A DNA stretch of 64,000 nt, taken from assembly GCF_963921235.1 (NCBI RefSeq), contig NC_086108.1, positions 53,322,001 through 53,386,000 of the forward strand, given 5' to 3'. Position numbers and translations under genes: made by a program. This DNA is from Mobula hypostoma (Eukaryota). The notes beneath the pieces were generated by a model. That model searched no databases. It was not told the DNA's origin and saw nothing but the letters and a program-made list of their open reading frames with translations. This document shows, piece after piece, positions 3,161-60,042 of this stretch (within the stretch, counting starts at the first letter, position 1; the number at the start of each line of letters is the position of its first letter).

Positions 3161-3627
3161 AGCATAGAAGCAGTGCATTTGTCTTAAGTCTTAAAGATGC
3201 CCTACTCGGCTCTTTCTCTGTTTAACTTTCCTGTCTCATTTGTGTTAGGAATTTTAAGAGCAAGAAAGGAGTATTAGGCACAATATGACTGTCTATATAC
3301 TGTAGATCCCAATGTCACCAAACTGCCATATTGGTTTTCTTTTGTGTAACCCTTTTTCTTTAGGATTCAATACACTTGTTTTTCTTGGTGATTAATTTCA
3401 TTTGTTTGGGAAAAGTCAATATTGGCTTTCTTTATAATTCTGATGTCCTATATTTAATATCTATGTTCCCTAATAACTGAGTCCTTTCTTATAAAAATTA
3501 AATGACATAATTTCAGCATTTCATTTCACATTGCATCACTTCTTCATTGTGAAATGTTATTAGTGGATGAGTAATTTTTACATGGCATTCTAGTCTCACA
3601 AATATTTGTGCTATTATTTTTCTGCAG

Positions 3628-3714
3628 AAAGGCGAGAAGATGACACATGAAGAAGTTAAAATGATTATGGATGAAACTGATGTTAATAATGATGGAAAAT
3701 TGGATTATAATGAG
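3628..3714 (+). CDS. EFCAB7: EFCAB7 exon, EF-hand ([29 protein letters not shown])
   Basis: ttttctgcag acceptor, gtattg donor, 87 nt, phase 0/0; EF loop [12 protein letters not shown]. Confidence 0.95.
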
Positions 3715-12700: not shown

Positions 12701-15700
12701 TGTCCTCTGCTATCAGCAGGCTAGGCAGCATCTATGGAAAAGAGTACAGCTGATGTTTCGGGCTGAGACTCTTCATCAGGATTGGGAAAAAAAGATGAGT
12801 CAGTGTAAAAAAAGGGGGTGGGGTCCAATCAACTTCCCCAGCTCTTTACTTCTCCCTTCTCCCTCCTTCCTGGTTTCACCTATCACCTTGTGGTTCTTCC
12901 TTCCCTCCCCCACTTTCTTACTCTGACTCCTCATCTCTTTTTTGTCCAATCCTGATGAAGGGTCTCAGCCTGAAATGTCAACTGTACTCTTTTCCTTAGA
13001 TGCTGCCTAGCCTGCTGAGATCTTTCAGCATTTTGTGTGTGTTGCTTGCAGAATATAGTATTACTGTTTCAGGGAAAGTGTACTGAAGTTAGATAAATAA
13101 GGTGCAAGAGCCATGACAATGTAGATTGAGAGATCAAGAATTTATTTTGTTGAGAGATCTGGTTAGTAGTCATAACAGTGAAATGGAAACTGCCTTTGAA
13201 CCTGGTGGTGCATGTTCTTAAGCTTCTGTACCTTCTGCTTAATGGGAAGGAGAAGAGAGAGACTGACCTGGGTGGGAGGGCTCCTTGATTATGTTGCCTG
13301 TTTTCCTGAGGCAGCAAGAATTGTATAGACAGAGTTAATGGAGGGAAAGCTAGTTATTGTGATAGTTGTGAATGCATCCCAGTCTTTCTTTAGTTTCCTA
13401 TGGTCTTAGGCAGCGCAGTTTCCATACTAAAACGGGTTGCATCCAGATAGGATACTTTCTGTGGTGCATCTATAAAATCTATTGAGGATTACTGGGGCCA
13501 TTCCAAAGGCTAATGGATTAATAACAGGAAAAAGGAAGAGGCAGCAAAGTTAAATCAATGTCTTGCATGTGTCAACACCATGGAAGACAACTTCCATCCT
13601 CCCAAGATAGTACATAGGTTAATTTCAAATACAGAAGAACTGATAGAAATCCCAATCCCAAGGGATAAAGGCAGAAAAATCACCGGGACCCAATGGCCTG
13701 CTCCCAAGCATTCTAAAGAGGTGGGTTCATAGATAGTGGACCTATCAGTTGAAAATTCACTAAATTCTAGGTGATTACATTGGATAATAACCATTGTAAC
13801 TCCCTTGCAGTAGGGAGCAAAACAAAAAGCAGAGAATTATGGGCCAACACGAGGAAATCTGCAGATGCTGGAATTTCAAGCAACACGCAGCACACATAAA
13901 AGTTGCTGGTGAGTGCAGCAGACCAGGTAGCATCTCTAGGAAGGGGTACAGTCGACGTTTTGGGCCGAGACCCTTCGTCAGGACTAACTGAAAGAAGAGC
14001 TAGTAAGAGATTATGGGCCAGTTAATTTTACAAGATGGCTAACTCAATAATCAAAGAGGAAATAACCTTTTAAGAAAGCTGAAGATAATTAAATCTGGTC
14101 AGCATGATTTTATGGAAGTTTTTTTAATGTTCTTTTGAGATCTTTATTGTCTAAAAATAATGCCATTATCCAGCAAGAACAACAGCCAATTATGTGCAAA
14201 AGATTCTTGGACAAACCAAGACGTAAATACTGTTGTTGCAAAGATAAAAGACTGGGACATATGTGATATTAAGGTAAAAGGCTACAATATAAACAATGAA
14301 AATCTGCAGATGCTGGAAATCTGAGCAACACATACAAAATGCTAGAGGCAGGCCATGTAGTATCTATAGAAAAAAATGACAGTCGACGTTGCAGTCCTGC
14401 AGAAGGATTTCGGCCCGAAACTTTGATTGTACTTTGATTGTACTTCCATAAATACTGCCTGGCCTGTTGAGGTCCACCAGCATTTTGTGTGTGAGGCTCA
14501 AATATAAACTTAACACATTGAGTTAATTTTAATTTTGATTTGGTTATCTGAATGAATGACTGTTGTTTACTTTTGAAGGGCCATGAAGATTGTACATCTG
14601 CTCTCACCCCATCCTCCTGCCACCTTACCAGGGAAAGAGTTCCTCACGTCCTCAGCTTCCACCCCACCAGCCTCTGCGTCCAGCACATAATTCCCCACAA
14701 CTTGCACCATCTTCAACGGAACCCCACCACCAAGCACATCTTTCCCTCACTTGGCACTTTTTGTTTCTGCAGGGATCGCTCCTTATGCAACTTCCTTGTC
14801 CATTCGTCCCTCCCCACTGACCTCCCTTCCTGACACTTATCCTTGCAAGCGGAACAAGTGCTACACTTGCCTCTACATCTCCTCCGTCACTACCATTCAG
14901 GGCTCCAAACAGTCCTTCCAGGCGAGGCAACACTTCACCTGTGAGTCTGTTGGGGTCGTATACTGTGTTCAGGTGCTTCCAGTGTGGCCTTCTGTATATT
15001 GGTGAGACTCGAGGTAAATTGGGAGACTACTTCACCAAGCACCTACGCTCCGTCCAGCAGGAAAAAAGGGATCTCCCAGTGGCTACCCATTTTAATTCAT
15101 ACTTCTCATTCCCATTCCGATATGTCTATCCATGCCCTCCTCTACTGTCGCGATGAGGCCACATTCAGGTTGGAGGAACAACACCTTTATATTTCATCTG
15201 GGTAGCCTCTAACTTGATGGCATGAACATCGATTTCTTGAACTTGCGGTAATGCCTCTCCTTTTCACCATTCCTCATCTCCTCCCTTTCTTACCTTATCT
15301 CCTTGCCTGCCCATCGCCTCCCTCTGATATCCTTCCACCCTTTTTTTTCTCTGATGGCTTTCTGTCCTCTCCTATTAGCTCAGTTTGAAAATGAAAATAG
15401 GGTGCAGAGATTTTAAATGTAATAGCAGCTATTCTTTAGTTCTTTACTTCACCCTTCCCTGTCCCAGTTTCTCCTATCATCTTGTGCTTCTCCCTCCCAT
15501 CTCCCCAGCTTTTAACTCTACTCCTTGTCTTTTTTTCTCTAGCCCAACACATCAACTATACTCTTTTCCATAGATGCTGCCTGGCCTTGCTGAGATCCCC
15601 CAGCATTTTGTGTGTGGCTTGGATTTCCAGCATCTGTGGATTTCCCTGTGTTTATTAAATAGCTTGATACACATTTAGTAAGGTGTAGCATTTTCCATTT

Positions 15701-18700
15701 TGCTTTAACAGAGAGGGTGACTCTTAAATATCTCACTTCTTATCAGTTGTAACACACAGACAAAATGCTTTAGGAGCTCAGCAGGTCAGGTAGAATCTGT
15801 GAAGGGAAATAAATAGTCAATATTTATTTCCCTCCTGATAAAGGGACTTGGCCCGAAGCATCGACTATTTATATCCCTTCATAGGTGCTGCCTGACCACT
15901 GAGTTACTCCAGTGTTTTGTGTGTTCCTCAAGATTTCTAGCATCTACAGAATTTAATGTGACTTTTTATCAGTTCACTGATTACATCAGCAATCTCTGCA
16001 AAGGGTTCCTATGTTTAAAACTGCATGCTATCATGTCATCTTTTGAGGACAAAAATCAGAATATCCAAATGTAAATAAAAATTTAATCTGTTTTATACAG
16101 TTAAATCTTATTTATTGACTGATGGGCATGTGATGGAATACAAAAGTGTGATCAGAATTAAGGGATGAGAAAGTAATTTTGTAAGTTTTTGGGAATATTG
16201 AATTGACTTTGTTACTTATATCCTTCATATACATGAGGAGTAAAAATCTTTACGTTATGTCTCTGTTCAAATGTGCAATTATAGTAATAAAAATATTATG
16301 TACAACAGGATAGTCAATATAACATAGAAATACAATTGCATCAGTATGAATTAAGCAGTTTGATGGCCTGGTGGAAGCAGCTGTCCTGGAGCCTGTTGGT
16401 CCTGCTGTTATGCTGCAGTACCGTTTCCTGGATGGTAGCAGCTGGAACAGGTCGTGGTTGGGATGTCTTGGGTCTCCAATGATCCCTTGGAACCTTTTTA
16501 CACACCTGTCTTTGTAAATGTCCTGAATAGTGGAAAGTTCACATCTACAGATGCACTGGGCTGACCACACCACTCTCAGCAGAGCCCTGCGATTGAGGGA
16601 AGTACAGTTCCCATACTAGGCAGAGATGCAGCCTGTCAGGATGCTCTCAATCGTGCCCCTATAGAAAGTTCTGAGAATCTGCGGGGCCATACCAAACTTC
16701 TTCAACTATCTGAGGTGAAAGAGGCGCTGTTGTGCCTTTATCACCACATAGCTGGTATGTACAGACCACCTGAGATCCTCAGTGATGTTTATGCTGAGGA
16801 ACTTAAAACTGTTCACTTTCTCAGCCCCAGATCCATTGATGTCTATAGGGGTTAGCCTGTCTCCATTCCTCCTGTAGTCCACAACCAGCTCCTTTGTTTT
16901 TGTGACGTTGAGGGAGAGGTTGTTTTCTTGACACCACTGTGTCAGGGTGATGACTTCCTCTCTGTAGGCTGCCTCATTATTACTTGAGATTAGGTCAAAC
17001 AGTGTAGTGTTGTCAGCACATTTAATTAGCAGATTGAAGCTGTGGGTGTCGACAAAGTCATGGGTACATAGAGAGTAAAGGAGAGGGCTTAGTACACAGC
17101 CCTGAGGAGCACCTGTGCTGAGGGACAGAGGTGAGGGAGCCCACTCTTACCCCCTGCTGGCGATCGGACAGGAAGTCCAGGATCCAGCTACACAAGGCAG
17201 GGTGAAGGCTGAGGTCTCTGAGCTTCTTGTCAAGCCTGGAGGGAATCATGGTGTTGAATGCTGAACTGTAGTCCAAGAGCAGCATTCTCACATATGCATC
17301 CCTCTTCTCCAGATGTGTAAGAATGGTGTGTAGAGCTGTGGCTATTGTGTTGTCTGTTGATGAGTTGAGTCAGTAAGCGAATTGTAGGGGGTCCAGTGTG
17401 GGTGGCAGCAAGCTGCAGATGTAGTTCTTGACCAGCCTCTCAAAGCATTTACTTATTATCGAGGTAAGTGACTTCTGCGGGTCAATTGGTGAAGTATTTA
17501 TTTAAACTGTTCTGCATCTGTTTGAAGTTCAGTTTGAATTTTTATATCTAATTTGAGCATCTGCCAATTATAGCAGTGTCCGATTTTGTAGGTTTAATAA
17601 TTTTGATTTTTGCCTTATGTTACACTATGTGAACAAAAAATATAGAGAAGAAATATTGACTGCTGTTTGCTTCAAAACTAGAAGCAACCTCTTTCAATTT
17701 CCGTTCCTAAGGGGTAAAGATAACATGATATTGACTTTGTAAAGTCAATATTTGTGTAGTGTTAATGTTGATTTTTTTTGTTTTCTTTCCTCCTTTCATT
17801 GGTTATATCTTCCTTTCAACATCCAATACAATAACAGTTGTAAATGCTTGGAGAGAAAATTGGAAAATGCTACTGTTCTGGTTGTGAATGAGAGCCTGGA
17901 GACCTTCTGTAAAAATTGTGCATTGATGATTTTTGTGCTGCAGTGTGGAGAAACAACAGAGCCACATCCCACTTGACACCTTTTCCCCCATACCTATCAA
18001 CCCCAAAACACAAAGGCAGCATAAATATATGATGAAATAGAAAAGACGTCATGCCTTTCTATATTAGATGTCTGAATGCAGGGTCTCAATGGGACTGTAT
18101 GTCACATACTCCTTCCAAGTAATTATACCCCTTAGGTTCTTTTGAAGATAATTCCACCCCATTAATAGCTTCCACCAAAAAAAAGACATCTGATGCAAGA
18201 AAGGCCCTGGTGTTATTTTATTTTGAAATCATGTTTTGTTTAACAAAATGGTAGAATGTTGTAAATTTATTGCAGAATACATTGGAGTTTGTTAAAAGGA
18301 TTGCATGTTAATTGCTTATGAATTACCTGGTCAGTTAAGCATTTTTGGGAAGAACAGAAATAGTTATGCACCACAGAAGCAGGAATATTCCTTACTTGAG
18401 TTTATGCAATCCTATTCCCATTTACCCTTGTTAAGCAAAGATTAGTTAAAATGACACAGCATTTGTAGATGCTTTTAGCTGGGGGTGACAAACTCCTTTA
18501 AAAATGAACATCTTAGCACAATAGCAAAGTGAAATATATTTTTTTTAAAAATAGCTGCAACTACATTTAAAATCTGTGCATCCTTTTCTCATTTTCAAAC
18601 TGAGCTGAATATTACGCCTGGGGCATAGGGATGTTATAATGTATTACAGCCCAGCCTCTGTCTGCTCTTTGTGATCAGTAGGTCTGTCTTGTTTTTAATC

Positions 18701-21700
18701 TTTTGTCCCTGATACAGAAATTTTTAAAATACAAAAGACATTCATAATATATCGATCTTACAAGATATTATCTGTTCAGCAGAGTTAAAACAGATTACAT
18801 TTTACTTGTAAATTATGATGAAAGTTGTGTGGTGACTTCATCAATCACACCTCATTGCTGTTAACTGTGTGGAGAATTTCACATGGCTGATGCACTGTTG
18901 CAGGAATTCTTACACAGGTGATCACAAAGAAAGATTTTGGCTTGGATATCCTGATACTAATCAGATTTTTCTATTACTTGGTTTTATTGTTGTCCCAAGT
19001 GGTTTGTTTATCTTCAAATTAATTTGGGTTTTAAGTAGTTCAAGGCTTAATGCATTTCCTGGCCATTTAGACTAGGGACTATGGATTCAATTCCAGTTGA
19101 TGCTGAATGAACGATTCTCATCAGTAATAACCCTATATGTAATCCAGAGTTTCTGGGCTAGAGAAGTAAAATAAAACCCAGTGTCCAAAAGTTCATTGGT
19201 TTTCCAGTGACCCCTGCTGGAAGAAGTATCTGCACATACTGTGAAGTCTTTCACCTTTGAACAAGCTGGAAGTATTCTCTATTTTGGTGTTAAATGAGGT
19301 ATCTCAGGGTCCATGGTATCTGGTATATCTCTGTATTAAAAAATAAGAGTCAAGCCCACAGATAAACAGATATTTTAAATCACTCCACTGGATTTTATGA
19401 TATCATAATCTTTTGATTTGAATGTTTAGTTTAAAAGAAAGGTAAGAGTCCACGTAAATTTTCGCTATGCACATGTGAAATGAAAGAAAACAGATTAAGA
19501 ACGTATTTGTTTTGCCACGATATTAATGAACTAAATTGCAAATGTTGACTTTAATTATCTGGCAAATTCTTCTCCAGGTTGGTATGCAAATTTTAAAGAG
19601 ACCAAGTTTAAAAAGTAATTGTTTGAAGCTTTAAGATGAAATGTCATTCATCAAGGAAGTATTACCTTCCTAGAACGTCTATTAAACCTGTGAAAGATTC
19701 TATGTGTTTCCAGAAGTCAAGAGTTAAAGGATGTGATTAACAAGTCAAGCAATAAGATTGAAATCAACAATGAAATGGTAGAATTGCTTTACCAATATTG
19801 TAACTTTTTATATCTTGCACTATATGGCTGCCACAAAACAACAAATTTCTTGATGTATGTCAGTGATAATAAATCTAATTCTGATTCTGAACTCTCTTTT
19901 GAATGTTGCAGTTGAATCTGCTTCCACTACTACCCTGATAGTGCATTGTTGATGTTACCTGTAAAATGACCCATGAGACCTACAAGGTCAGAGCAGCTTT
20001 TTCAGGACATTGCATTAAAATCATTATCTTTCAGTGGAAAGAACCCGGAGCTGGATTTCATTTGACTTGACCAAGCTTCCTGTTTATTCATGTTGGCCGG
20101 TTCGAATTATTATAGGCTGACCTCATAAACACTCTGCACATTAGTTTAGCAATAAATGAAGCTTTAGGCAAGAGGGTTTAAGGAGTGTAGTCTTTTGATC
20201 CTATCCCTGGAATACCATGATAACTTGATGTAGATTCATCTCTGATCAAAGCCAGAACTGTAATTTAAAATTTTACCAAAGGAAAATTTTAAAATAAAAT
20301 TAATTAAAATACAAAGAAGTAATTAAAATATTAAAATAAACTAAAGAAAAAATTCTCCTAATTTCATGACTGGGCACCTGCATTTGAATATGGACTCTAG
20401 CCTTACACAGGCATATGATTGGACAGGAGTGTTCCCTAGCAAGACCTATTCAGTTGCTGGAAAGTGAGTGGGATAAGTCTCAAACTTAATTATTCAGTTG
20501 TATTAGTGTGGGATTCTGAAACTTAGAGGTTTAAACATCTACAGGTCATGACTCCAGTCAGAAGAATGCGTGTCTGAAAATCTAAGTGGCTAGAGCGCCA
20601 CCTGGTGCATTATGAGAAACAGAATGTCAGTGGAATGCTTTGTGAAATTTTAAGTGAAAGTAAATAAATACAACAATTTTTTCAACTCACATTTCTTGAT
20701 GCATGAATAGAAGTCATAGCTTAACGAAATGGAAAACTGCGATACAAACCCCTCCTCCCAACCCTTGCAATCTGGGGTTGGGGGGGGGGGGGTCACCTGC
20801 AGATTACGGTGCTGTCCACTTATCCATTTGAAGAATTATTGATCTTCCAGGACTGGGGATTGGAAGATACTGACACACTTTCCTCAATCTGGAATGGACA
20901 ACAAAATGAAAAATATCACTGCGTACTATGAAGCACAACAAATTATTTTAAATGAGTTCAGCCAAACAAAACAGATTGCTTTTTTAAACATTTTGCATAT
21001 TGTTATCTCGTAGGAAAAAAATCACAGAACAAACCTAGTATAAGCTTCTAAGCCAAGTTCTGCCAGTTTACTTAGAACTTCCACTGTCCTTCGTTCATTT
21101 TTGTTTTATAAGGGGGCCACACATGCATTGATAAGGTGTTACTTGCATGGATGCTACTGAGTGATGGATTAATTATGGCTGTTGAAAATGCCTTAGCAGG
21201 AAATAAACCAGGTAATCATAGGTATGAACACCTTAGGCTTGTTCAGTACTGTCTCACATGAAAAGAAGTAGGCAAGGCTTTCAAAATTCATGCCTTAACA
21301 GAGCTGTTATATTTTGTGTGGCAAAGAAAATAATCTGAAAAAAACTTTTGAAAGAGGCAGTGGAATGCTATTAAGTAGTTGGGGGCAACCATTTTAGCAA
21401 CATTATATAAAGAGAGCAAACAGAAGTGTGATGGCAGGTTAGAGAATACAGCATATTGAAATGATTACTGTCCAGCATTTAGGTGAGCTTTCATTCTGAG
21501 TAAGTTATTATTTTGGGCTCCAGTTTAGCACTGCTCGTTCTGTGACCAAGGGACTATGAAATTATTTTCTTCACTCGATGCAACCTATTCCCAAAGTGAA
21601 TTTATTATTAATGCTTTTGAAGATGTTTCTCTTTATTGAGTCTTTTAAGTTGCCTGGAATAATCCATGTTATTCGTGTTTTTTTTTCTTAATGTGTAATT

Positions 21701-24700
21701 AGACGTAGATTAATAAGATTCCGTGAAGGTTAGATGGTTTTTTATTAGTGTACTCTAGGAAGTTGGAAGTGTCTCTACCAGTAAAAAGCTTGCTGCATGG
21801 TTATATGTTTATTTGAGCACATATTTATTTGTCATGGAATATTAGAAAATAAAAAATGCCTTTTTCCAAAATGTCCCTTCTATTAATTTTAAAACCACAA
21901 TTCTATGTCCCAAGTATTTTGCATTCATGTCTTGTGTATTCCTCATTCTCACTCAGGTTACCTTGAGAAGGTGTTGAGTATTGCTAGATAACACTTGAGT
22001 AATTAATTTAAAATTGTGTACAATAACTTTTAAAAGATAAAGAAGATATTGATTTCCTAAGAGTATATAAAATTATTTTAATGGCTAATTTTAAGGATTT
22101 TGTGTGCAAATTACATGTGAGTTTACAGTCTTTAAATCTCTGTTTTGAAATTGACCCAGAAATTTTTAATATAGCATCTCTCAATTTTATCCTCAGTATG
22201 ATCAAAGTTTTTGGCTATCCCAAAAGCAACCATGCAAGGCATTGGAAGTGAGTCAATTGCACTGTGAAGGGTCTTTGTGATCCCATTTAAAAAAAACATT
22301 GTGACTCTAGAGTTAGAAACTACTACCTTAACATAAAATTGTAGGCCACTCTACATCCAGAATCTTACATGATTTTTTAAAGTTAATCAAATTTCGAAGC
22401 TCGCAAATAACTAAAGTGTGCAAAATTTCACTTTTAATATATTTAATTATTTTTTCAAATTGAAATGCTATTTTGATGTCTGCCTGCATTAATGAACATT
22501 AATAAAAATCATGTCATGCACTTCTTATACAAGGCAACTTTTGATGTTTCATATTTATACCTTTTTATTATAGAATTGGCAACATGCTTGGTCAAAGGGA
22601 TGCTTTTTCCTTGAAGATAATGATGGAATTGTTAGTCATCGTTATAGACTGGAATTACATCAAACTACTAATGTTTTTCTTACCATCGGACCATTAAACC
22701 TTGGCCAAACTGAAGGTATAATTTGTCAAGAATTCTGCAACAACTAAACTACAGTGGGTTGATATTTTAAATACTGCAAACAGTTTAAACAAAAAAAATA
22801 TATTTCCCCGAGATTAGTTGGTCTGCTGGAAAAGGAAGACAATTTGCTTCGTGTAAGTAAGATGAGGAAAGGTATTTTAAATTAATATGAGATTTGCAAA
22901 CAAAGATATAATGTGTGATTGTTTCTTGGCTCAACGTGTCTAAGAGGCCACAATGATTACAGTGTCCCTGCAGGTATACATTCATCAGTAATCATTTCAG
23001 TAATAAAAATTCACTCTTTTATCACAAGTCACCACCAAAAGATTTGAAGGAGTAATGTTAGTTCATTATTACAGAGTTTTTATGGGGAAAAAATAAAAAG
23101 CATAATATATACTTAATAATTAAATTAGTTTATCAAGGACGAATTTCTCAAGTCGCTAGTTCACAGCAGGGGGGCCTCTTCAGGGATTTGCTTTGGAAAC
23201 TGACAAGTCAATCTGTTCTATTGGTACTTTATCCAGCAATAAAAATCCATTCTCTAGTTATTTAAAACAATGATCTCCCCCCACAATAAAATCAGAAATC
23301 TTTTGTCAATACACTGTACATCTACAGTGGCATTAATGTCGTGAGAAAAACTTCCCTTGAGAATGCATCTCTGTTTATAACATGGGATTCAATGGGGAAA
23401 AAAGGATTTTGCATTCCAGAAATCGCAATAGAGGTAGTTTTTTATGCCCCTTCTTAACATGGAGGTATATTGAATCTTGATGAGGTATCTGTAATTTTCC
23501 CAAGAAATGCACCTGAAGCAAAATAATCACCCTTGAATTTGAAATACCTAGGAATATATCCTTAAAAGTATCACGTTCAGTGAAATGTGGGTATTTTTTA
23601 AACAAGAAAAATGCAAATCAGACTTCCTGGTAAAGGGACTCATTGATGCTGCCTGACCTGCTGAGTTCTTCCAGCATTTTGTATTAATCAGATTAACAGT
23701 CCCTTTACCAGTGAACTGCCCAACATACTGCTTATCTATGAACACTTTGTGTATCATTTTCCATTGAGAACCTGCTGCAAGGTCTCAACTCTAAGCCCAG
23801 TGACAATGTTCAACTCTGTGGTCTATCCTATATTGGGTGAGACAGAAGTAGCCCTGATATAAAGTTTTTTATTACTAGTTATAGTATTTCTTCCTGTATT
23901 TTATTGTGGGCATAATAGTTATGGAAACTTACTCAAATAACAAAAACAAATGCAGAATTGCTGAAACGTATCTGACATTTTCTTGAAGTCTCACCTCCAA
24001 GAAAGAATAATGTTTCTGACAGTAGATTAACATTCTACAGTAAATGTCTGATGAGTTTTTAAACTTACTTAAAGCAATTTAAATGAACTCAATTTATGAA
24101 ATCTAAAAATATGAGCACTTTAATCCCTTGAAACTGTTCCCCTCCATTGAAATCAAAGAGGAAAATATTTGAAACAACTTCAAATAGACTCCCCTTCTTC
24201 GCAAATGAAAATCATGCCATTGGAGCTGTGGGAAATTGCTAATGTCAGCTGCCAGTCATTTCGGGACTTGACACGTACATGGAAAGTCCAAATTAGCTGG
24301 CACTTGTACAGGAAAATTATGTCAATTCTACATGTAGCTACTGGCATTGTACTGCAAAATCCTGCCCATTAGAAGTAAAATATTAGGGAGTTGTACAGCA
24401 CAAAAACTGGCCCTATGGTCCAACTTATCTTTGTTGACTAATTTGTCTACCTAAGCTAGTTCCACTTACTTATTTAGGCCGTTTCCCTAATCAGCCAATG
24501 CAATTTATTCAAATCCAGTAAAAAGGAAACAGAAGATAAACACTTGGAGAACACAGTTAGAGAGATACTCAGATTACTATAATGAGAGAATAGAAGTTGT
24601 CTAAACAACAGTAAAATGTCTTTCAGAAGTGGAACAATAAGGATGCATTTAAGGATATGAAACAAAAACGATCAACTTGAAAATGTGAGCAAGCACGAGT

Positions 24701-30700: not shown

Positions 30701-33700
30701 TTTGGTCTAAGTTCTCATTTCCAGCTGCTCAGATTATAAAACTTATGAGTGTATTTTGGACAACATTCTATCTGTCAGTCAAAAGCATTAAAGGAGCAAT
30801 GAATGTCTCGGATGTTACGAAGAGTTAAAATGGGAATTCTTTTGTACCTTGTAATGGGTGGTTTTAAGGCATCATCTAAAGATACTTGAGCCCCTTTGCC
30901 CACCCCTGTAGATGGCCTGCGTAAATTTCTGGGAAAGAAATGGGACAGTAAGAATTGCTGCATATTTTCAGTATCTTAGGGACATCAGTAAATAAGCAAA
31001 CATCTCCCATTTATTGGGTCAAGCACAAGATAGTTATTTTCAGATTGGGAGTTGGAATATTTTTTCTGTATTCACTCATCTTGCTACCAAAAGTTAGAAG
31101 GATACATTTTATTATACGTACACAGTGATATTTTTGTATTTAAATAGAAACTAGGTAATTGATTTATTCAAAGAATGAGGAACAAGCCTGAGGTCACGCA
31201 AAAATTTAGGCCTTAGCACATATTTTTAAAATTGTTTTTTCAGAAGTTATTGTTAGTGTATGAAGTACCACATGAAGATTTCCTTGCAGTGATATATTCT
31301 GTATTTTTCTTTGAGTAATTCCATTTCTTATAATTTCCTCATACATTAGCTATGATTAGCAAATGTATCTTTAATTACACAACAGATATAAGTTGAAGTT
31401 GAATGTATCTCAGACTAATAGGAGATTGCCAGAGTCTTGCAGTAATAGTGGATTCATGTTGCTGCTCATCAAGAAAAAATGGAAGTTCAGGCATTTGGAT
31501 GGGAGTTACATTTTCATTAACTTTGGAAAAACATAATGGATCCATGCTTGGAAAAGTGTTTAACTACTCTGCAACAGCTACGATTATAAATGAATGAGTG
31601 TGACAATAGAACAGTGTGAAAATATCTCCATGAAGCAATCCAGATTTGCCAAAATTTAATGAATGTTCCTTCATACTCAAGTTATATTAATCAGGCTTGT
31701 TATTGCAAAAGCAAACTCATTTGCCAGTAATGTTTGCCATATTTACCAGATTTTAGTTGTCAAATTCTGCATTGAAATTTATGATGCTCTGCTAAGGATA
31801 CAATAGTAAACCCTTAGTATATTTAGATTTTAAATATAATGTAGTATGGAAGGCTTCCCAGTTTTATTTGTGTACATCATAGGCTCCCTTGAATGAATTC
31901 CAGAACTATCTCTGCCAATGATATGCTAAAAGTTTGAAAAATATTGATCATCATTACATATTTTTCTACTTTGAATATTTTACAAATGCTGTGGGTGGTT
32001 TTGATAAATGTTACTTTGTTTAATTCAACAAATAAGTTGGGTTAATTAGTAATGAAAACCAAACAACTGGAGAAACTCAATGCATCAAGTCACACCTATG
32101 GGAGCAAAGGAATTGTCAGCACTTTGGATGAGGACCCTGCATTAGCACATCAGCAATTCTTTTCTCCCCCCCACCCCCACAGATGATGCTCAACCTGCTG
32201 AGCTTGTGTAGCAATTTTTTTTACTTCAGATTCTAGCATTTGCAGCTTTTGTATCTCCATTGTTAATAAGTGTATATCTTTAAATGATCTAATCAAAGGT
32301 AAGTGGCGATCTGCTGCTATGTAGAAGAGATTTTCTTTCATGAACAAATGCTATGGTCTATATTTAGGGCAATGTGGCATGACATCCATAGACAAATCAT
32401 GTGACATTTTTACACTTACAGTGAAGAGTAGCTAATGGTCGAGTGATTTGATTAGTGAGTATTTTTTGTTTAAAAATCTTGACTGCAGTGAATATGCAAG
32501 CATCATCATAGTAACAAATCAATTCCTATAATCTATTGATGCAAGATATTATTGAATACACATTGCACAGTCCAGAGGGAATAGCAAAGACGTTAACTAC
32601 CTAAAACAGTACGAGTAATTGAAAACCAGGGATTTAAGTATTGAGCTAGGAATCTGCTAATCAAGACAGTTACGATGAGGAAGGTTATTCAGCCTATCTT
32701 CAGTCATTCTTCTGTATTTTAGCAGTTAATTAGTTTTAAAATGTTATGGGGAAATAAATTCCTCTTTTGTTGTAAGCACTAAATGTATACAGCGGTGATG
32801 TAAACACATTGAAGTCTGGTTCCGAAATTCAGTAACTAGATCTAACTTTTGGAAGCAAAGTTCAACATGTATGCATTTCTGCTCATGAGTTAGTACATAC
32901 AACAGAGAGTAAATTTCTACCCAAGAGGTTTTCATCTAACTACTTGGAAAATTGTTTCATATATAGTGATCATTTTTTCTGTAAAGTACAATTTTTTGGA
33001 CATTTGTCCTGAATTTGGTGGAATCTGTTTTCATTTTACCTTTCTTAAACTTAAACTTTTTTTAACCTCAATATTTTAATATCTTTGTTTTGAGAAACAT
33101 ATTTCTAATGCTTACATAAGGGTATTTTAAAATAGGAGATAAACATGGCCTGTATAATGAAAGGAAGACAGAATATTTGAAATGGGGAAGACATTATTTA
33201 TCATCTGAAAGAGACACACAGGGTCAAGAAGTCAAAAGCGCTATGCTCAGTATTGCATAGCATTTTGTTTTAAGATGCTGGTCTGAATGTTTGCTCTGCA
33301 TTCCAGAGCTAGCTGGATATACAGTATAGGATCATTTAAGTTGGCTTTTGTTTTGTCAGCAGGACAAATAGGCTTAAAACCCATTGTAAATCATTTTAGC
33401 ATATCCAAGTAAGAAAAAATATTTAATCTTTTTAAAATTTTCTCTCTAATTTCTCAAAGTGATAACTTGTATTTGTGCAAGATCTTGTGGATATTTGCAG
33501 CTGTATAGTTTTTTCACATCATTTCAGAGAGCAAGGTTATTCAAGAGGTTGATAGTACAAATCAAGGCTAAACCTGAAGTTGATAGAACAAGTTAAGGCT
33601 AAATAAGTTTAGAACTATACCAAAAGGGTTCCCTTCCCTAACCCTGCAACAACAAAGCTAATCCAGAGCCAATAACATAAACCCAAAATGATGTTGTTGG

Positions 33701-36657
33701 ATGGAAGCAACACACATCAAAGTTGCTGGTGAACACAGCAGGCCAGGCAGCATCTATAGGAAGAGGTACAGTCGACATTTCGGGCCGAGACCCTTCGTCA
33801 GGACTAACTGAAGAAAGAGCTAGTAAGAGATTTAAAAGTAGGAGGGGGAGGGGGAGATCCAAAATGATAGGAGAAGACAGGAGGGGGAGGGATGGAGCCA
33901 AGGGCTGAACAGGTGATTGGCAAAAGGGAGACGAGAGGATCATGGGACAGGAGGTCCGGGAAGAAAGACAAGGCGGGGGGAGGAACCCAGAGGATGGGCA
34001 AAATGTGTGGCCACTGGGATTAATTCCACATCCCATTCCCATTCTGACATGTCTATCCATGGCCTCCTCTACTGTAAAGATGAAGCCACACTCAGGTTGG
34101 AGGAACAACACCTTATATTCCATCTGGGTAGCCTCCAACCTGATGGCATGAACATTGACTTCTCTAACTTCTGCTAATGCCCCACCTCCCCCTCGTACCC
34201 CAAGTGTTATTTATATACACACATTCTTTCTCTCACTCTCCTTTTTCTCCCTCTGTCCCTCGGACAATACCCCTTGCCCATCCTCTGGGTTCCCCCCCCC
34301 CCCCACTTTTCCTTCTCCCTGGGCCTCCTGTCCCATGATCCTTTCATATCCCTTTTGCCAATCACCTGTCCAGCTCTTGGCTCCATTCCTCCCCCTCCTG
34401 TCTTCTCCTATCATTTTGGATCTCCCCCTCCCCCTCCCACTTTTAAATCTCTTACTAGCTCTTTCTTCAGTTAGTCCTGACGAAGGGTCTCGGCCTGAAA
34501 TGTCGACTGTACCTCTTCCTAGAGATGCTGCCTGACCTGCTGTGTTCACCAGCAACTTTGATGTGTGTTGCTTGAATTTCCAGCATCTGCAGAATTTCTC
34601 GTGTTTACGTTGTTGGATGGAAACTTATTTAGTGGTAGAATAATTTGTGCAAGAACCTTTAAGGTGCAGGCATCAAGGGATCTGTTTTCCAGTTCATTAT
34701 TGGTCTGCTGCTACTTTTATCATCACCATTCATTTGTTTTAAATATCTAAATTTTCTTTCTCATACTGAATTTAGGAGAATTATTTTCTCTCCAGCTTCA
34801 TTAATTACTAATCCTTGGTGAATCAGCAAATCCAGATATTTACGTAGGTTTGACAGTGTGAGCAATTAGGCTGATTTTCAACTTTTAGGCTCAGAGATTG
34901 AAATGCAGAACATTCTATGTTTGGCAATGCTGGCAAATGGTACCAGCCTGCAGGCAAATGAATGGGCAGAAGGAACCAGGTGGGGGAGAGGGAGGGGTAA
35001 GATGGAGACAGTTGCTGGAGAATGATGTATAGCAAGTGGAAATGGGACTTTTAGGGGAGGGACGAAGTACAGGTTGAACCAGATGGGGAAAAGGATCTGG
35101 TGGGTGAAATGTGTATGTAGTGGGTGGATTGAACCAGGAAGGGGAGGCAGATGCAAATGTATGATGGTGAATGGGGGAGTTCAGGAAAGGGAACAAAGAT
35201 GTGAGGACCAGAGATGAACTGGAAGGAGTGGAGATAATGGAGTACAGGAAATGAGGGTTACATGAAATTGGAAAATTCTGTGTTAATACCATTGGGCTAT
35301 ACAATACACAGATGGAATATTAGATGTTGTTTTGTCAAGTTTGCTTAAATCCTCATCTTAGCAGTTAAGTGGAAAAGACTGAGAACAGTCAGGTTGGTAT
35401 GGAAATGGGGAGGTGAGTTGAAATGGCACGCAACTGGAGCTCGGGCAGGGTGCAGGTACCCTGTGAATCTACATTTGGTCTTTTGATGTAGTGGAGGCTA
35501 AAGTATAGAGGTTGGTAGAAATAAGTAAACTATTGCTGACATTATTTTGTTTTGCAGTTGTAATCATAATTCCAAAATGTCATGTTGCTGTTCTGGTGTT
35601 AGAATAAAGGGTTGAATGAATGTTGAAAATCTTTTGGAGAAGTATGCAGTGCTTTTAGAACAAATTACATGAACAAAGGTAGGTGATGTCGAGCAAAAGG
35701 AGTTTAAGATGTTAAGTGTGAAACAGAGAAAAAAAAGTCCGAAAGATCAATGCCTTTGGATTTCTTATTACATTGTAATTGTTCAGTGAAGATTTTGAAA
35801 CTTAGCATAAAGGCTCAGGGTTTTTGCATATAGAAAACAGCTGGGGTGATGGTGCAATTGTAACAAATGTAACCCATTGGAAGTGAAACCCAATGATTCA
35901 CCCAAATTGCTCTGACAGTTCTTGCACCTCCAGGTCATCATTCTAATTTGAAAGAATATCAGTGGTGCTTCATTGTTTCTGACTCCAATCTTGGGACTGT
36001 GTATGATGGGAGCTCCTTAATCAGATGGCCAAAGGAAGTGCTCCTTGCCAGCTTCTGAAGTGAAATTAAGGATGGGAAATAAGTGTTGGCCTTATCAGCA
36101 ATGTCAATATCTTAAAATTATTGAATCCACTGTTGTGAGAAGTAATTCAGCATGAACGATATTTGCATTTGCAGTGTATTAAACCTTCAAAACAATCAAT
36201 TAAACCAAGAAAATTTTGTAGTTAAGGGAGAATTTGTGAGATCTTGAAAATAACTGGATTGCACAGCCATAAGTGATATCAGCATTAATATGAAAGGATA
36301 ATTATAGTTTAGTTGTGGATGCACAACATTGAACAGAACCAATAATCATAGGGTCCAAAATACAATCTTGGAGAGATTAGGTGGAAAAGAAAATAGATTT
36401 TAAGTGATGCAGAAGAATGAGCGCAGTTCGATAATATGTTTAGTTAAAAAAATCCAGAGGGAGATATTTTGAAGTGAATGTTATCATGCAAGCAAAACTG
36501 AGCTATTTGTCTCTGAATGCTAATCCAAATTCCCAGCTAATCTATTGTACTCAAGCACATCTTCAGTGTTTCTTTATTGTGTCATGACTGTGGGTTTTTA
36601 TATATATATATATATATAATGTGTGTGTGTGTATATGTATATGTGAATATGTGTATA

Positions 36658-36707
<50 letters not shown>

Positions 36708-39700
36708 ATGTAGAGTATAAAACTATAAAACATTAAAAAAACATACTTGGATATTGACTGCTCAGCTACAAATCTGACACATGGGCATGTGCAAATATTT
36801 AAATTTGACCGCCTTTGAAGTGGCAACATACACATGCACATGGCCATCGAACTTTGCAGCTCCTCCCGTGGAGGGTCAGACACCCTGAGCCAATAGGCTG
36901 GTCCTGGACTTATTTCCATTTGGCATAGTTTGCATATTGTTGTTTGATTGTTTGTGGTTTTTGTATTGCTATATTTATGCTCTATTCTTGGTTGGTGCAG
37001 CTGTAACGAAACCCAATTTCCCTCGGGATCAATAAAGTACATCTATCTATCTATCTACATTTCTTGGTTCATTTGTAGGATTCCTGTCTCTATTGCCCCC
37101 TTTGCCCTCCACCTGTCAACAGTGGTGCACCTCCCCACTTAATCATGAATAAGCCAATTAAATAAATCAGTAAAACCCAATTTAGCAACAGGCATACATT
37201 ACAGGGTACAAATTCTTAGAGATGAGAGAAATGGAGCACGTTGACAAAGTATGGTAAATGAGTGCTGCTAAGAGCAGAAAATGAACTGCATTCACGTTTC
37301 CGTGCTCCTTTATTTTCTGCATATCTAGGCATGGCTTCAAAGGGAGACAGTGAGTAGGACTTTCAGAGTTAGTAGAAAGAACAAATGGTGTAGTTTTATG
37401 GGTCTAATTATGAGGTGATGCACTTTGACAAAGAAAGCAAGGGATATGAGCATACACTCAGTGGAAACTCATTCAAAGCTATTTGTTGAAACATGCATTT
37501 CCCCAAAAGTACATTTCTAGATGTCTAAATACATAAAAATGATCTGAGTTTTCAGAAATGCAAACAACAGGAATTCTGCAGATGCTGGAAATTCAAGCAA
37601 CACACTTAAAAGTTGCTGGTGAATGCAGCAGGCCAGGCAGCATCTCTAGGAAGAGGAATAGTCGACGTTTCAGTTAGTCCTGATGAAGGGTCTCGGCCTG
37701 AAACGTCGACTGCACCTCTTCCTAGAGATGCTGCCTGGCCTGCTGCGTTCACCAGCAACGTTTATGTGTGTTGCCTGAGTTTTCAGAATCAGTTTTAATA
37801 TCACTGGCATATGTCGTGAAATTTGTTAACTTTACAGCAGCAATGCAATGAAATAGATGATAAATATAGAGAAAAAACTGAGTTACATTAAGTATATATC
37901 TCTATTAAACAGTTAAGTTAAAATAAGTAGTGTAAAATAACAAAAATAAAAAAGTATTAAGGTAGTGTTCATGGGTTCAATGTCCATTTAGAAATCGTTT
38001 GGCAGAAGGAAAGAAGCTGAGTATGTGCCTTCAGGCTTCCGTACCTCCTTCCCTGTGGAGTGCCAGTGTTAATTGTCAGCAAAGTGAAGATGTTATTTCC
38101 AGTCCGGACCAATTGTGGTCTTCTGATTAGGAAGTCAAGGATCCAGTTACAAAGGAGGTACAAGGGCCTAGGTTCTGTAGCTTTTTGATCAGGACTGTAG
38201 GAATAATGGTGATAAATGCTGAGCCATAGTCAATGAACAGCATCCTGACATAGGTATTTGCATTGGCCAGGTGATCCAAGGCTACATGGAGAGCCATTTG
38301 AGATCACGTCTGCCGTAACCTATTGTAGCAACAGTCAAATTGCTGTGGGTCCAGGTCCTCCTTGAGACAGGTGTTGATTCTAGCCATGACCAACCTCTCA
38401 AAGCATTTCATCACCTTAGATGTGAGTGCTTCTGGATGATAGTCATTGAGGCAGCTCACACTGCTCTTCTTGAGCACTAGTATAATTGCTGCTCTTTTGC
38501 AGCAGGTGGGAATTTCCAACTGTAGCAGTGAGAGATTAAAGTATCTTTGAATACTCCCGCCAGTTGGTTGGTACAGGTTTTCAGAGCCTTACCAGGTACT
38601 CCATCAGGTCCTGCTGCCTTGCAAGACAGCCTGACATCAGCTTATGAGACAGAGATCAGAGGGTCACTAGGTGTTGCAGGGATCCTCATAAATGTGGGTT
38701 TATTCTCCCTTTTAAAGCAAGCATAAAAGATGTTGAGCTCGTCTGGTAGTGAAGCATCACTGCCATTGGGTTTTACTTAGTAGGAAGTAATGGCCTGCAA
38801 ACCCTGCCAGAGTTGACATGCATCTGATGTCGCCTCCAACCTCTCCCTGAATTGTTTCTTGGCGCTTGAAATAGCTCTCCACAAGTCATACCTGGTTTTC
38901 TTATACAGACCTAGATCACCAGACTTAAGTGCCACAGATCTAGCCCTGAGCAGACTTATGAACCTCCTATATCACCCACAGCTTTCGGTTTGGGAATGTA
39001 CAGTAAGATTTTGTTGGCACACGCTCATCCACATAGGTTTTAATGTAGTCGGTAACAATTGTGACATTTTCATCCAGGCTCGAAGATGATGCCCTGAAAA
39101 TTGATTCAAAGCAGTCCTGTGTGTGCTTCTGTGCTTCCCTGGTCCATACCTTCTTGGTCCTCACTACTAGTACTGCAGTCTTAAGTCTCTGCCTATACTC
39201 GGGGAGTAGAAGTACAGCCAGGTGATCAGACTTACCAAAGTGTGGGCAGGGTGTGGAATAGCATGGTAGGCACTCTTGAACTTAGTGTAAGAGTGGTCCA
39301 GTGTGTATTTCCTCTGGTGATATAGGTGATTTGTTGATAATAATTATTTAGTGACTTTCGCAAGCTGGCCTGGTTAAAATCCCCCAAAATAATGGAGAAG
39401 GTATCAGGATGTGTTGTTTCATGCCTGTTGATTATATTACTCAGTTCATCTAGAGTCTGTCTGACATTAGCCTGAAGTGGAATATACACCACTACCAAAA
39501 AGATCATTGAAAACTCTTGCTGCAGGTAAAATAGCCGGCACTTAATTGCGAGGTATTCCAGGTCTGGTGAGCAATATTGGGATGTTACTGATACGATAGT
39601 ACACCACAAGGAATTGATCATGAGGCATATACCTCTAACTCTGCTTTTGAGAGACTCAACCAACCTGTCTTGATGATGTATTGTGAAGCTGTCTATTCGA

Positions 39701-42700
39701 ATCGCTGCATCTGGCACGGAAGGGGTTAACCATGATTCCGTAAAACAAAGGACACACGTGTTCCTAATGTCCCTCTGATACAGCAGCCTAACTCTGAGAA
39801 CATCAGTTTTATTTACCAGAGACTGCATGTTTGCCAGCAAGATAGTTGGTATTGGGAGTCTAAAAAAATGAGGTTTTCAACTCACTTTCAGACTAGCACA
39901 TCGACTCCTCTTTCGCTGGCAGCTTTTTAAAGAGGCGGTGTGCTGGCCATAGTCCAGTATATTTCCGTCGGTTTTAAGCAGTGATGGCTTGTTCAATTGC
40001 ATTAGGACTTCATCACTGACTGTACACATCATAGATGCATTTATGGTTCTCAGTTGTAGCAGACTAAAATGAAAATATTTGATGTGTTCCATCATTTTCA
40101 ATGAGAGCTATTTTAAGAAATAAAATCTGAGTTTTAAAAATAAAAATATGGAAATATAGAATAGAGTCACAGAAATTTGCACAGAACGCCAGTTAAATTG
40201 CAACTGAAGTAGTTTGTCTATTTTGTAAATACCATTAGAATACCATTAAAGCCATCCCGAGCTTATAGCATACATTTCACAGATTCACTCGCAAAGTACC
40301 AAGGTAGAAAACAAGTTATGAGGAGAAAATGAAATTGCTGAAACAATTTCAATGGAACCAGAGAAGGCTAAGACAATTTTTAATGTTGATTTTGTTTTAA
40401 GTTTTTTTTCCTCTATAACTACCTCTATCCAGATCACATGCAAGTGACCTGGGTTATATGAGCTGTATTTAAGTGGTTTGGTGGGTCACATGTTCCCAGT
40501 GTCTTTGGTAATATCTGCTTGAACTGTTTGCTGGAATTTGTGTTACAGCAACCTCAGATGAATGTGGTTTGCAAATCTGTACAGGGTGTTTAATTATACA
40601 TTCACTTCACATCATACTTCCACATTCTGCACAGAAAACTTTGACACAAAGAAAAATCAACTGACACGACAGGGTTTCATGGAATTGAACCTGATGGAAG
40701 CCAATGATCGGGAAGGTGATCCAAGAGATCTCTGGATTACACTTGAATCAATGGGTTACAACAGAGCACTGGAAATGCAAGAGGTATGTGTTCCTTTAGC
40801 CTTAAAGCAATAAGTTGTCGACAATTTACAATAAGAGAGAAGGATGTGCTTAGTGGTGGGGTCCTGTTGAAGGTGGCAGAAGTTGCGGAGGATAATGTGT
40901 TGGATCTGGAGGTTAGTGGGGTGGTAGGTGAGGACAAGGGGAACTCTGTCCCTGTTGTGGTGGCGGGAGGATGGGGTGAGGGCTGAAGTGCGGGAAATAG
41001 AGGAGATGCGGGTGAGGGCATCATTGATGACAGCAGAAGGGAAACCATGATCCTTAAAGAAAGAGGACATTTGAGATGTCCTGGAACGGAAAACCTCATC
41101 CTCGGAGGAGATGCGGTGGAGACGGAGGAATTGGGAATAGGGAATGGCATTTTTGCATGTGGCGGGGTGGGAAGAGGTTTAGTTGAGGTAGTTATGAGAG
41201 TCAGTGGGCTTGTAGAAGATGTCAATGGACAGTCTGTCTCCAGAGATGGAGACCGAGAGATCAAGAAAGGGGAGAGAAGTGTCCGAGATAGACCAAGTGA
41301 ATTTGAGGGCTGGGTGGAAGTTAGAAGTAAAGTTGTTGAAATTGACGAGTTCAGCATGGGGGCAGGAAGCAGCACCAATGTAGTCGTCAATGTACCGAAG
41401 GAAAAGTTGGGGAGCAGTACCAGAATAGGTTTGGAGCACAGACTGTTCCACAAAACCAACAAAGAGGCAGGCATAGCTAGGGCCCATGCGAGTTCCCATA
41501 GCTACACCCTTGGTCTGAAGAAAGTGGGAAGAGCCAAAAGAGAAGTTATTGAGTGTGAGAACCAGTTCCACCAACTGGAAGAGGGTAGTGGTGGTGGGGA
41601 ACTGGTGAGGTCTATTATCCAGAAAGTAGCGGAGGGCTTTGAGGCCTTCTTCATGGGGAATGGAGGTGTATAGGGATTGGAAAGTCCCGACGAAGGGTTC
41701 CAGCCTGAAACGTCGACTCATCGTTTCCACGGATGCTGCCTGACCTGCTGCGTTCCTCCAGCATGTTGTGAGTGTTGCTTTGACCCCAGCATCTGCAGAT
41801 TATTTTGTGTTTACAATAAAAGAGAAATGTAATTCTAAAATTTTTCATGCTTTCAGGTGTATACATTTTATAATTTATTCTGGAACATTGTTATTGCTAG
41901 GTTTATTTAACATGTAAGAAGAAAACTTGTGTTTATAATGTGTATCAGGTTAAGATTTGCTTGTACTGAATGATCATTGATACTTCCTGTTTGTCCCTAA
42001 ATGCTACCTGACCTGCCGAGTATTTGTAGGTAATTTTCTTTTGGTAGTATTTTGCTTTTGCAACAGTGCTAGTGTACCTTTTTTAATTAAGCATTTAAAT
42101 TTAGAACATTAACCAATAGCAGACAGATTTACTGTATGTTGAGCTCCCAATTGTGAGTCAACTGCTACTGGAAAGGCATATTGCATAATTGTTTTGTTAG
42201 GTTATTAAGAATTTCAATAAATTAAGTTTCATAATCGTAGCTTGTAACTAGTATCATTGCCCCTCGTCAGAAATAATTCGCAATTGCACTGCGTATCTTT
42301 AGATTACATTCCATCTCAAGTTCTTCTAACTTTTGGTAGCTATGCCTTCAGTCTGTTAGGCCTGGGTTCCTTAATTCCCTTCATCAAGACTCATTCTTTC
42401 CCCCTCTGTTGTTCCTCAAAATCTAGATCTAACCAAGCTTTTGATTACTCTTTCAAGCTTTCAATTACTATAATTAAGCTTCTGTGTAGAGACTTTCTGA
42501 TGGTTTCTGAGATGAAAGATAATATATAAATGCAAATTATATATTTACTTCAGAGCATTGGTGTTTTTATTTATTAATTTCTCATTAAAGAATTTTTTTT
42601 ATATAGGCTTGTCCATTTGTTGTTGATATCTATGCAGAAGATAGCAAAATTAAGCTGACACCAATCAGTCTGGAAGCAGATGGAAGGCTCCTGAATTTAG

Positions 42701-59590: not shown

Positions 59591-60042
59591 GAGCGGGAGG
59601 AGAAGATGGTGGCACGCCTGCGTGTGCACAGCCCTCCAGTGAAAAATGATATTGTATCTGTTAAAGAGGGGCCGTGGACAATTCTGATTTGATGAAGAAT
59701 GGAAGTGAAAGCACAGAGGAACATCTGGAGAAATTTCTGAAACGCCCGTTCACTGCTGTCGTTACTGTGTTGTCGGGAATCTTTCAAAGGGTAGGCCTCA
59801 AAATCCCTGGCCTTGCCTGCTTTTGGCGACCAAGAAGGAGGTCGAATTGTTTGGACAGATTCGAGTGTCGGAGAGCTGATCAGAGCGCGATGTTTTCGGA
59901 AATTATGTGGTTTTGTCAGTTTTTTCAGTCTTGGTTTGTCCTGTGTTTTGTGATATCACACCGGAGGAAATAATGTATCATTTCTTAATGCATGCATTAC
60001 TAAATGACAATAAGAGAGGACTACGTGTCTTCATAATCATCA
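59591..60042 (+). mobile_element. non-coding bipartite retroposon, copy 1
   Basis: 5' gaagatggtggc start and 3' end homologous to the reverse complement of 61995-62645; (atc/taatc) tail; possible TSD TAATG at 59586-59590 and 60043-60047. Confidence 0.7.

Follow-up and report, generated by a model that had tools for sequence, protein, structure and literature searches.

The minimal hammerhead ribozymes of metazoan Penelope-like elements (PLEs) are of type I, with a helix I of 4-5 bp and without a helix III stem. They carry a palindrome at positions 15.2-16.2 and an unpaired base after A9, and they lie in the pseudo-long terminal repeats (pLTRs) of the elements, mostly scattered singly or in opposite-strand pairs separated by 100-700 bp (Cervera and De la Pena 2014, PMC4209133). 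The published monomers are inactive and dimers weakly active (PMC4209133), and the hammerhead of an anole PLE cuts only with the PLE protein (PMC11167929). We analysed a 64,000-nucleotide stretch of the Mobula hypostoma genome (contig NC_086108.1, positions 53,322,001 to 53,386,000, forward strand; hereafter the window), in which a sequence-only reading had reported hammerhead-like motifs in the introns of the gene EFCAB7, and found these published features shared by its motifs. We conclude, with a probability of about 85%, that the 11 motifs are minimal type I hammerheads in the pLTRs of truncated PLE insertions and likely inert passengers of the EFCAB7 introns.

All 11 motif sites that had been reported were confirmed in position and strand. 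An ungapped scan of both strands of the window with the copy at 37676 as query returned exactly 11 sites, with 1-9 mismatches over 36 positions, and no twelfth site up to 13 mismatches, while among 100 dinucleotide shuffles no match came closer than 12 mismatches, the rate per window being 0.04 at 12 and 0.2 at 13. Measured against exons placed by tblastn and spliced contigs, all 11 motifs are intronic in EFCAB7: five lie in the intron at about 10539-22573, one at about 26434-29239, four in 30289-40634 and one in 40784-42606, with seven copies in sense and four in antisense orientation to the gene. The earlier count of at least ten copies holds for motifs, yet these represent only nine separate insertions, because 12748/12948 and 33770/34473 are the arm pairs of single fold-back insertions. 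The motif copies (target-site duplications by eye) are:

12748..12783, minus strand: antisense; helices I and II damaged; inverted arm of insertion 12319-13052
12948..12983, plus strand: sense; core letters intact, helix I broken; predicted to pair with the 12748 arm
13950..13985, minus strand: antisense; G12A; insertion 13843-14012 with an 11-bp target-site duplication
14393..14428, plus strand: sense; A6C, helix II and 3' box damaged; two-armed insertion 14284-14493
15831..15866, plus strand: sense; G8A, A15.1G, broken helix I; old two-armed insertion at about 15745-15960
27657..27684, plus strand: 5'-truncated motif without CUGA; two-armed insertion 27582-27754 with a 13-bp target-site duplication
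30631..30666, minus strand: full core, G10.1-U11.1; antisense; insertion 30565-30680 with a 15-bp target-site duplication
33770..33805, minus strand: full core, G10.1-C11.1, U15.2; antisense; inverted arm 33702-34001 of insertion 33702-34613
34473..34508, plus strand: full core, U11.1, U15.2; sense; predicted to be fully paired with the 33770 arm
37676..37711, plus strand: full core, U11.1, intact ACGU; sense; 3' half predicted to pair with the upstream arm 37559-37673
37559..37790: insertion carrying the 37676 motif, with a 14-bp target-site duplication
41683..41718, plus strand: motif of a second PLE lineage, U4C; sense; starts at an inversion junction

The core boxes CUGAnGA, GAAA and UH are complete in five of these copies (12948, 30631, 33770, 34473 and 37676). 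The copies at 30631 and 37676 had been described as keeping the whole core; this is true of the invariant core, and the cut positions predicted for them (37707/37708 and 30635/30634) are correct, but helix II is closed by G-U instead of G10.1-C11.1. The full G-C form together with an intact ACGU occurs in 0 of the 11 copies.

The window motifs are the published minimal type I hammerhead, an identity on which core boxes, structure descriptor and PLE context agree. A covariance-model search of the window yielded 13 Rfam matches at E<=10 and no hammerhead family among them, so that the identification rests on these three kinds of evidence. Of the computational checks that the sequence-only reading had proposed, Rfam models thus returned no hammerhead; a structure descriptor of our own (helix I of at least 4 bp, CUGAnGA, an optional base, helix II of at least 3 bp, GAAA-NN-UH) matched 4 of the 11 copies (30631, 33770, 34473 and 37676). 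We also drew a 1.2-Mb genome sample, made up of 120 pieces of 10 kb that were selected by position from 23 contigs; 40 of these pieces come from the first 40 Mb of one contig (C1) and the first 54 Mb of another (C50). The descriptor matched 31 times in this sample, once outside the family, and never in five Markov controls. The core boxes are complete in the family majorities and in 52 of the 147 sampled copies, and the unpaired base between 9 and 10.1 is A in 140 of the 147. At 15.2-16.2 the palindromic ACGU is the majority in all but one of the five largest clusters, and in that one CpG decay lowers its share. In isolated folds the probability of the open helix I (4-5 bp) and of helix II is about 0.9 (ViennaRNA).

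The proposed origin of the motifs in a PLE pLTR is borne out by open reading frame (ORF) remnants upstream and by their same-strand placement. Self-comparison of the window places every motif inside a repeat of 115-980 bp, and each motif shares the strand of the element's ORF, 190-300 nt past its stop, with a tail of 60-100 nt behind it; GIY-YIG C-terminal remnants lie upstream at about 12319, 14982 and 34020. The nine insertions, which are 5'-truncated and at four places flanked by target duplications of 11-15 bp (by eye), comprise six two-armed fold-backs, one with an inverted reverse transcriptase (RT) piece and two simple insertions; truncation and fold-back are the described norm for PLEs. 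Element parts in the window are:

12319..13052, plus strand: fold-back PLE insertion with GIY-YIG C-terminal remnant, inverted arm 12713-12822, 3' untranslated region (UTR), motif and tail
14594..15655, plus strand: older PLE relic with linker and GIY-YIG remnant, 3' UTR and tail; motif mostly deleted and outside the 11
34020..34613, plus strand: direct arm with GIY-YIG C-terminal remnant, 3' UTR, motif and tail
40835..41682, minus strand: inverted PLE RT fragment joined to the 41683 motif and its tail (to 41814)

A first look at the genome gave 49,810 candidates for the RT fragment 40835-41682, and the 150 that were scored are 89-100% identical to it. The insertion to which it belongs, about 1 kb within 40784-41814, begins some 50 bp past the splice donor of exon 40635-40783, in a 1.8-kb intron half of which it occupies.

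Elsewhere in the genome, 20 PLE loci were picked for long open frames, and in 19 of them a same-strand motif (12 or fewer mismatches) lies downstream of the long ORF, although for one or two of the 19 the closest motif may be part of an adjacent insertion. At one locus (L101), motifs 3,484 nt apart flank a single ORF region. Every examined genomic copy is broken somewhere. A PLE ORF of 717 aa scores 30.9 bits for RVT_1 (above cut-off) and E 0.0013 for GIY-YIG (below cut-off), and in L102 and L107 the order is RT, a CX3CxxC linker and GIY-YIG with an internal CxxC; the linker recurs in L102, L104, L106, L107 and others. Judged by this linker motif rather than by a tree, the carrier would be a PLE of Neptune/Nematis type; a Poseidon-type label was rejected, as the CX3CxxC linker is present and Penelope/Poseidon lack it (PMC8557442). 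A PDB search with the ORF gave no match. On the reverse strand of L101, about 165 nt past the first motif, the probable ORF start overlaps a donor-like AG|GTATG, and PLE 5' regions are known to contain introns (PMC6765202). Long antisense frames run over the RT region (L110 reverse strand 4041-6045, L105, L117 with 400 aa, and window 40987-41673 with 228 aa) and are probably a by-product of codon usage.

The claim of a high-copy ribozyme-bearing family stands: the 1.2-Mb sample holds 147 motif copies, or 1.2 per 10 kb, and bootstrapping gives a genome total of 350,000-510,000. Exact 31-mers occur genome-wide 7,580 times with C11.1 and 43,114 times with U11.1, and their reversed controls 0 times. 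The figure of one motif per 3 kb did not survive, as its span had been picked afterwards; the density is one per 5.8 kb over the window versus one per 8.2 kb in the sample, and local enrichment in EFCAB7 was rejected (P for at least 11 motifs about 0.17). The 11 motifs are in EFCAB7 introns because a highly abundant element carries them, and at such density nearly every long intron of the genome will contain these motifs.

As to the EFCAB7 pre-mRNA, it had been suggested that it passes through several ribozymes. Seven sense copies do lie in its path; 30631, by contrast, is antisense to EFCAB7 and is therefore absent from the pre-mRNA as a ribozyme. Five of the seven sense copies (12948, 14393, 15831, 27657 and 41683) have a damaged core or helix I, leaving only 34473 and 37676 with core and helices both intact. 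Upstream of these two lie inverted arms that are 97% and 92% identical, respectively, and cover the whole motif at 34473 and its 3' half at 37676. Equilibrium folding of naked RNA in windows of 450-1,150 nt (ViennaRNA) assigns helices I and II of both copies a probability of 0.0 in context, versus about 0.9 in isolation. Since the inverted arm is transcribed just before each motif and would trap it in a hairpin, cleavage of the host pre-mRNA at the two full-core sense copies is predicted to be negligible. Probable RNA runs point the same way in that the introns of 10,346 nt (which holds 34473 and 37676) and 1,823 nt are spliced out at GT..AG in all four runs, from two studies; this evidence consists of assembled contigs, from which RNA ends and expression level are not readable. 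With a genome-normal density, 4 of 11 copies antisense, 5 of 7 sense copies damaged and the other two predicted to be sequestered, a special meaning of the motifs for EFCAB7 is not supported.

Several points weigh against regarding the motifs as inert hammerhead passengers. First, proteins or fast co-transcriptional events could give folds that differ from the equilibrium model. Second, of 30 intact genomic copies just 10 have a covering upstream arm, so that sequestration does not hold in general, and the 41683 copy has no such arm; its U4C change reduces hammerhead activity but need not abolish it (PMC3088659). Third, spliced contigs prove that some transcripts are spliced, which is compatible with partial cleavage. 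Fourth, compensatory changes are scarce: no pair is changed on both sides in the 11 window copies, and the 147 sampled copies show 0-3 per helix pair, a comparison of low power as the helices barely vary in the genome. Without covariation, the support for the hammerhead fold comes from pattern and context.

Neighbouring insertions of opposite orientation, namely 13950(-)/14393(+) and 12948(+)/13950(-), are also predicted to be able to pair in the pre-mRNA, so that the EFCAB7 introns would be rich in long double-stranded RNA, a likely substrate of A-to-I editing.

Once inserted, the copies decay by CpG transitions whatever the catalytic role of the position, and there is no selection after insertion. 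Among exact 31-mers on the C11.1 background, G12A occurs 1,808 times versus 1,638 for the loop II G>A change, against 7,580 unchanged copies, so that loss of the catalytic G12 is, if anything, 10% commoner than the loop change. Likewise, in 41 copies chosen by their tails, which include a few from other subfamilies, non-CpG core positions are changed at 13 of 369 versus 34 of 697 at other motif sites (p=0.35). Between element lineages the picture differs. Identity between lineage A (5 copies) and lineage B1 (3 copies) is 0.91 for the motif, 0.76 for the final 450 nt of the ORF, 0.65 for the tail and 0.46 for the 3' UTR, the last being the shuffled level; the motif value is inflated by the partial choice of lineage A copies by motif (3 of 5), B1 having been picked by protein. 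Figures for lineage A versus lineage B2 were set aside because one copy had been mislabelled. A comparison of five subfamily majorities confines motif variation to N7, loop II and 11.1, plus A6 in one family. In four more distant organisms the motif changes only at N7 and by CpG-type substitutions, and C outnumbers U at 11.1 in three of them. Excess conservation of the core, on which the reading would have staked the motif's function, is thus absent across inserted genomic copies, where decay is neutral; conservation of the motif shows between lineages (motif 0.91, ORF 0.76). Because of this split, excess conservation across genomic copies is the wrong refutation test for motif function.

The commonest exact form has G10.1-U11.1 (43,114 copies, versus 7,580 with the G10.1-C11.1 listed among minimal-hammerhead features, PMC4209133), and U11.1 is found in window copies 30631, 34473 and 37676, with C11.1 in most lineages. 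Mere CpG decay as the source of U11.1 was rejected genome-wide, the count being 24 times the approximately 1,700 expected per CpG transition, so that source elements carried U11.1; in the 1.2-Mb sample the ratio of U11.1 to C11.1 is only 8 to 4, which are small numbers. U11.1 copies are not measurably younger (0.059 versus 0.060). A shifted A-U register was also rejected as less stable, and ViennaRNA keeps the G-U register, at a cost of about 2 kcal/mol. A second variant, A6C, marks 12 of 16 sampled copies of an older subfamily versus 1 of 47 in family A, and is present in window copy 14393. Natural A6C ribozymes cut slowly, and a 10.1-11.1 mismatch can be active (PMC3088659). A literature search of partial coverage found no published report of U11.1 or A6C PLE forms.

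What the motif does for the element can be approached from the ends of the copies. Reverse transcription of PLEs starts internally, downstream of the motif, and catalytic mutants still insert in vitro (PMC11167929). The same internal start is suggested here by copies that extend beyond the cut site into the tail and by their 5' ends: in a crude scoring of 50 family-A copies, 12 start within -4..+9 of the motif's outer edge and 0 at the cut site. In five of the nine window insertions (14393, 27657, 37676, 41683 and 15831), the direct arm begins close to the 5' edge of the motif, at about -4..+8 nt. Reverse transcription would thus start in the tail downstream of the motif, so each copy, however short, would bring along an uncut motif. 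In active elements the motif would be under selection, most likely as a slow ribozyme that needs a dimer and protein and may be dispensable at the insertion step.

Alternatively, the motif may be kept mainly as a structural or protein-binding element, or as a mark of the RNA 5' end, with catalysis largely vestigial. The prevalence of G10.1-U11.1 at 24 times the CpG-decay yield, the A6C subfamily, the clustering of short-copy 5' ends at the motif's outer edge and the in vitro insertion of catalytic mutants fit this idea, as does the spread of Naiads without hammerheads (PMC8557442); moreover, the isolated monomer is predicted to fold to a rod that pairs G5-G8 with C15.2-C17. Set against this, the variable positions (N7, loop II, 11.1 and, in one family, A6) are mostly ones that a hammerhead tolerates, A6C and the 10.1-11.1 mismatch occur in natural ribozymes that are active, if at low activity (PMC3088659), and the motif of the anole element does cut when protein is present (PMC11167929). 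We consider a mainly structural role unlikely, though deserving of some credence. More speculatively, the variants could form a natural allelic series that reveals the function of the PLE hammerhead: the recent form with the greatest success would have lost the G10.1-C11.1 pair and an older subfamily would have spread with A6C, the remainder of the motif being better conserved than the ORF. The motif would then be selected as a slow protein-gated switch or as a ribonucleoprotein or 5'-end landmark, and its weakening, together with fold-back self-silencing, would let the element reach a density of one copy per 8 kb among intron-rich genes with no harm to transcripts; we offer this tentatively and hold it to be rather improbable.

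That the sense copies cut the EFCAB7 pre-mRNA at a low rate, as a dimer of 34473 and 37676 or in trans with PLE RNA and protein, and so tune splicing or expression, appears quite improbable. The two copies do lie in the same intron at a distance of 3.2 kb, their AUGU/ACGU palindromes are compatible, and a double hammerhead can be drawn at -9.7 kcal/mol; PLE family sequence is abundant in probable RNA runs (as summed contig depth, which is not expression), and domesticated intronic hammerheads are known in amniotes (PMC6155905). However, both copies are predicted to be arm-locked, the dimer is weaker than two monomer rods (-18.5 kcal/mol, tertiary contacts being outside the score), the mRNA is spliced across the intron, and the copies carry CpG-type or family changes, with locus-specific conservation not evident.

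Still less probable, and already largely refuted, is that the copies are non-autonomous retrozymes or mini-elements resembling short interspersed elements that spread via circular RNA. Several insertions measure only 115-230 bp and have target duplications, and animal retrozymes have been proposed to derive from PLE pLTRs (bioRxiv 10.64898/2026.07.22.740005), but no tandem motif arrays or short tandem non-coding units were found, 5' ends are variable with coverage climbing steadily toward the 3' end of the full element, and copies continue past the cut site into the tail instead of ending there. Finally, a chance likeness or a DNA promoter element of the pLTR, to which the missing Rfam match, the missing covariation and the presence of promoters in pLTRs (PMC6765202) might lend themselves, is hardly credible given the agreement with the published minimal form in 12 of 12 core positions, in both helices, in the additional base that follows A9 and in the palindrome, the position expected in a PLE, and a variable N7 that a TGACG-type DNA site would not permit.

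The host gene was identified through an exon peptide whose matches are EFCAB7 proteins, led by one from Mobula birostris at 98%, and it lies on the plus strand, as shown by tblastn exons with joints from transcript-like contigs:

3616..57693, plus strand: host gene EFCAB7, part in the window; outer edges approximate (tblastn)
near 3616-3723, 9551-9748, 10413-10538, 22574-22714, 26323-26433 and 29240-29396, plus strand: EFCAB7 coding exons
near 30155-30288, 40635-40783, 42607-42816, 44093-44203 and, last, 57622-57693 (alternative 52818-52922), plus strand: EFCAB7 coding exons

Of the two candidate last exons, 52818-52922 matches only the Mobula isoform X2 protein and may be lineage-specific or a prediction artefact, and 57622-57693 matches sawfish and bamboo shark proteins. 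Other non-LTR retrotransposon fragments (RT and endonuclease remnants) lie at 16197-17294, 38129-39876, 44774-45502, 45722-46069, 48114-49634, 51505-52178 and 59626-62786, and a TA/TG microsatellite at 36599-36701 gives spurious sub-cut-off Rfam matches to mir-297 and mir-466.

The locus itself is ordinary and teaches little; the window contributes a negative on the host-gene idea, plus the G-U and A6C subfamilies. The genome, on the other hand, is a useful test bed: its tens of thousands of full-core copies, combined with gene annotation, give the statistical power to look for in vivo cleavage of host pre-mRNA by minimal hammerheads, as a depletion of intact sense copies in introns, and the two subfamilies are natural variants for the question of the hammerhead's role in PLE mobility.

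Compared with the described systems, this is a published kind of motif in a new host group at unusually high copy number. The accessible part of the survey of minimal hammerheads (PMC4209133) does not name cartilaginous fish, and our literature search, thin for subscription papers and Repbase, found no report of such hammerheads in this group. Helix II has 4 bp here versus 7-8 bp in the Schistosoma form, the dominant exact form has G-U at 10.1-11.1, unlike the G10.1-C11.1 hallmark, and the two 31-mers alone count about 50,700 exact full-core copies, versus about 9,000 in Xenopus tropicalis and 4,000 in coelacanth by a descriptor, the methods being different (PMC4209133). With the Neptune/Nematis PLEs that carry an endonuclease (Craig et al. 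2021, PMC8557442), the element shares a C-terminal GIY-YIG with two Cys between the motifs, a linker between RT and endonuclease (CX2-5CxxC there, fitted by CX3CxxC here), 5' truncation, partial tandems, an adjacent inverted copy and a tail. As in PAc, the Poseidon element of Anolis (Frangieh et al. 2024, PMC11167929), the hammerhead lies upstream of internal RT starts and copies finish in a tail past the motif at two common end points, here at about +95 and +130 (by eye); the ORF, however, appears to start about 165-180 nt after the motif start (L101) versus within the motif in PAc, and the protein has the CX3CxxC linker that is absent from Penelope/Poseidon elements such as PAc. Animal non-LTR retrozymes (PMC7229834; bioRxiv 10.64898/2026.07.22.740005) are likewise of type I, very high in copy number, with 120,000 copies reached in axolotl, and often intronic, but they are tandem non-coding units with canonical ribozymes, whereas the copies here derive from a coding element, of which they are the truncated ends, and carry a minimal motif. 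The ultraconserved intronic hammerheads of amniotes (RECK and CTCL; PMC6155905) resemble the motifs here in being type I and in an intron of a vertebrate gene; those are single-copy, canonical and conserved across species, whereas the EFCAB7 copies are recent, repeated and decaying.

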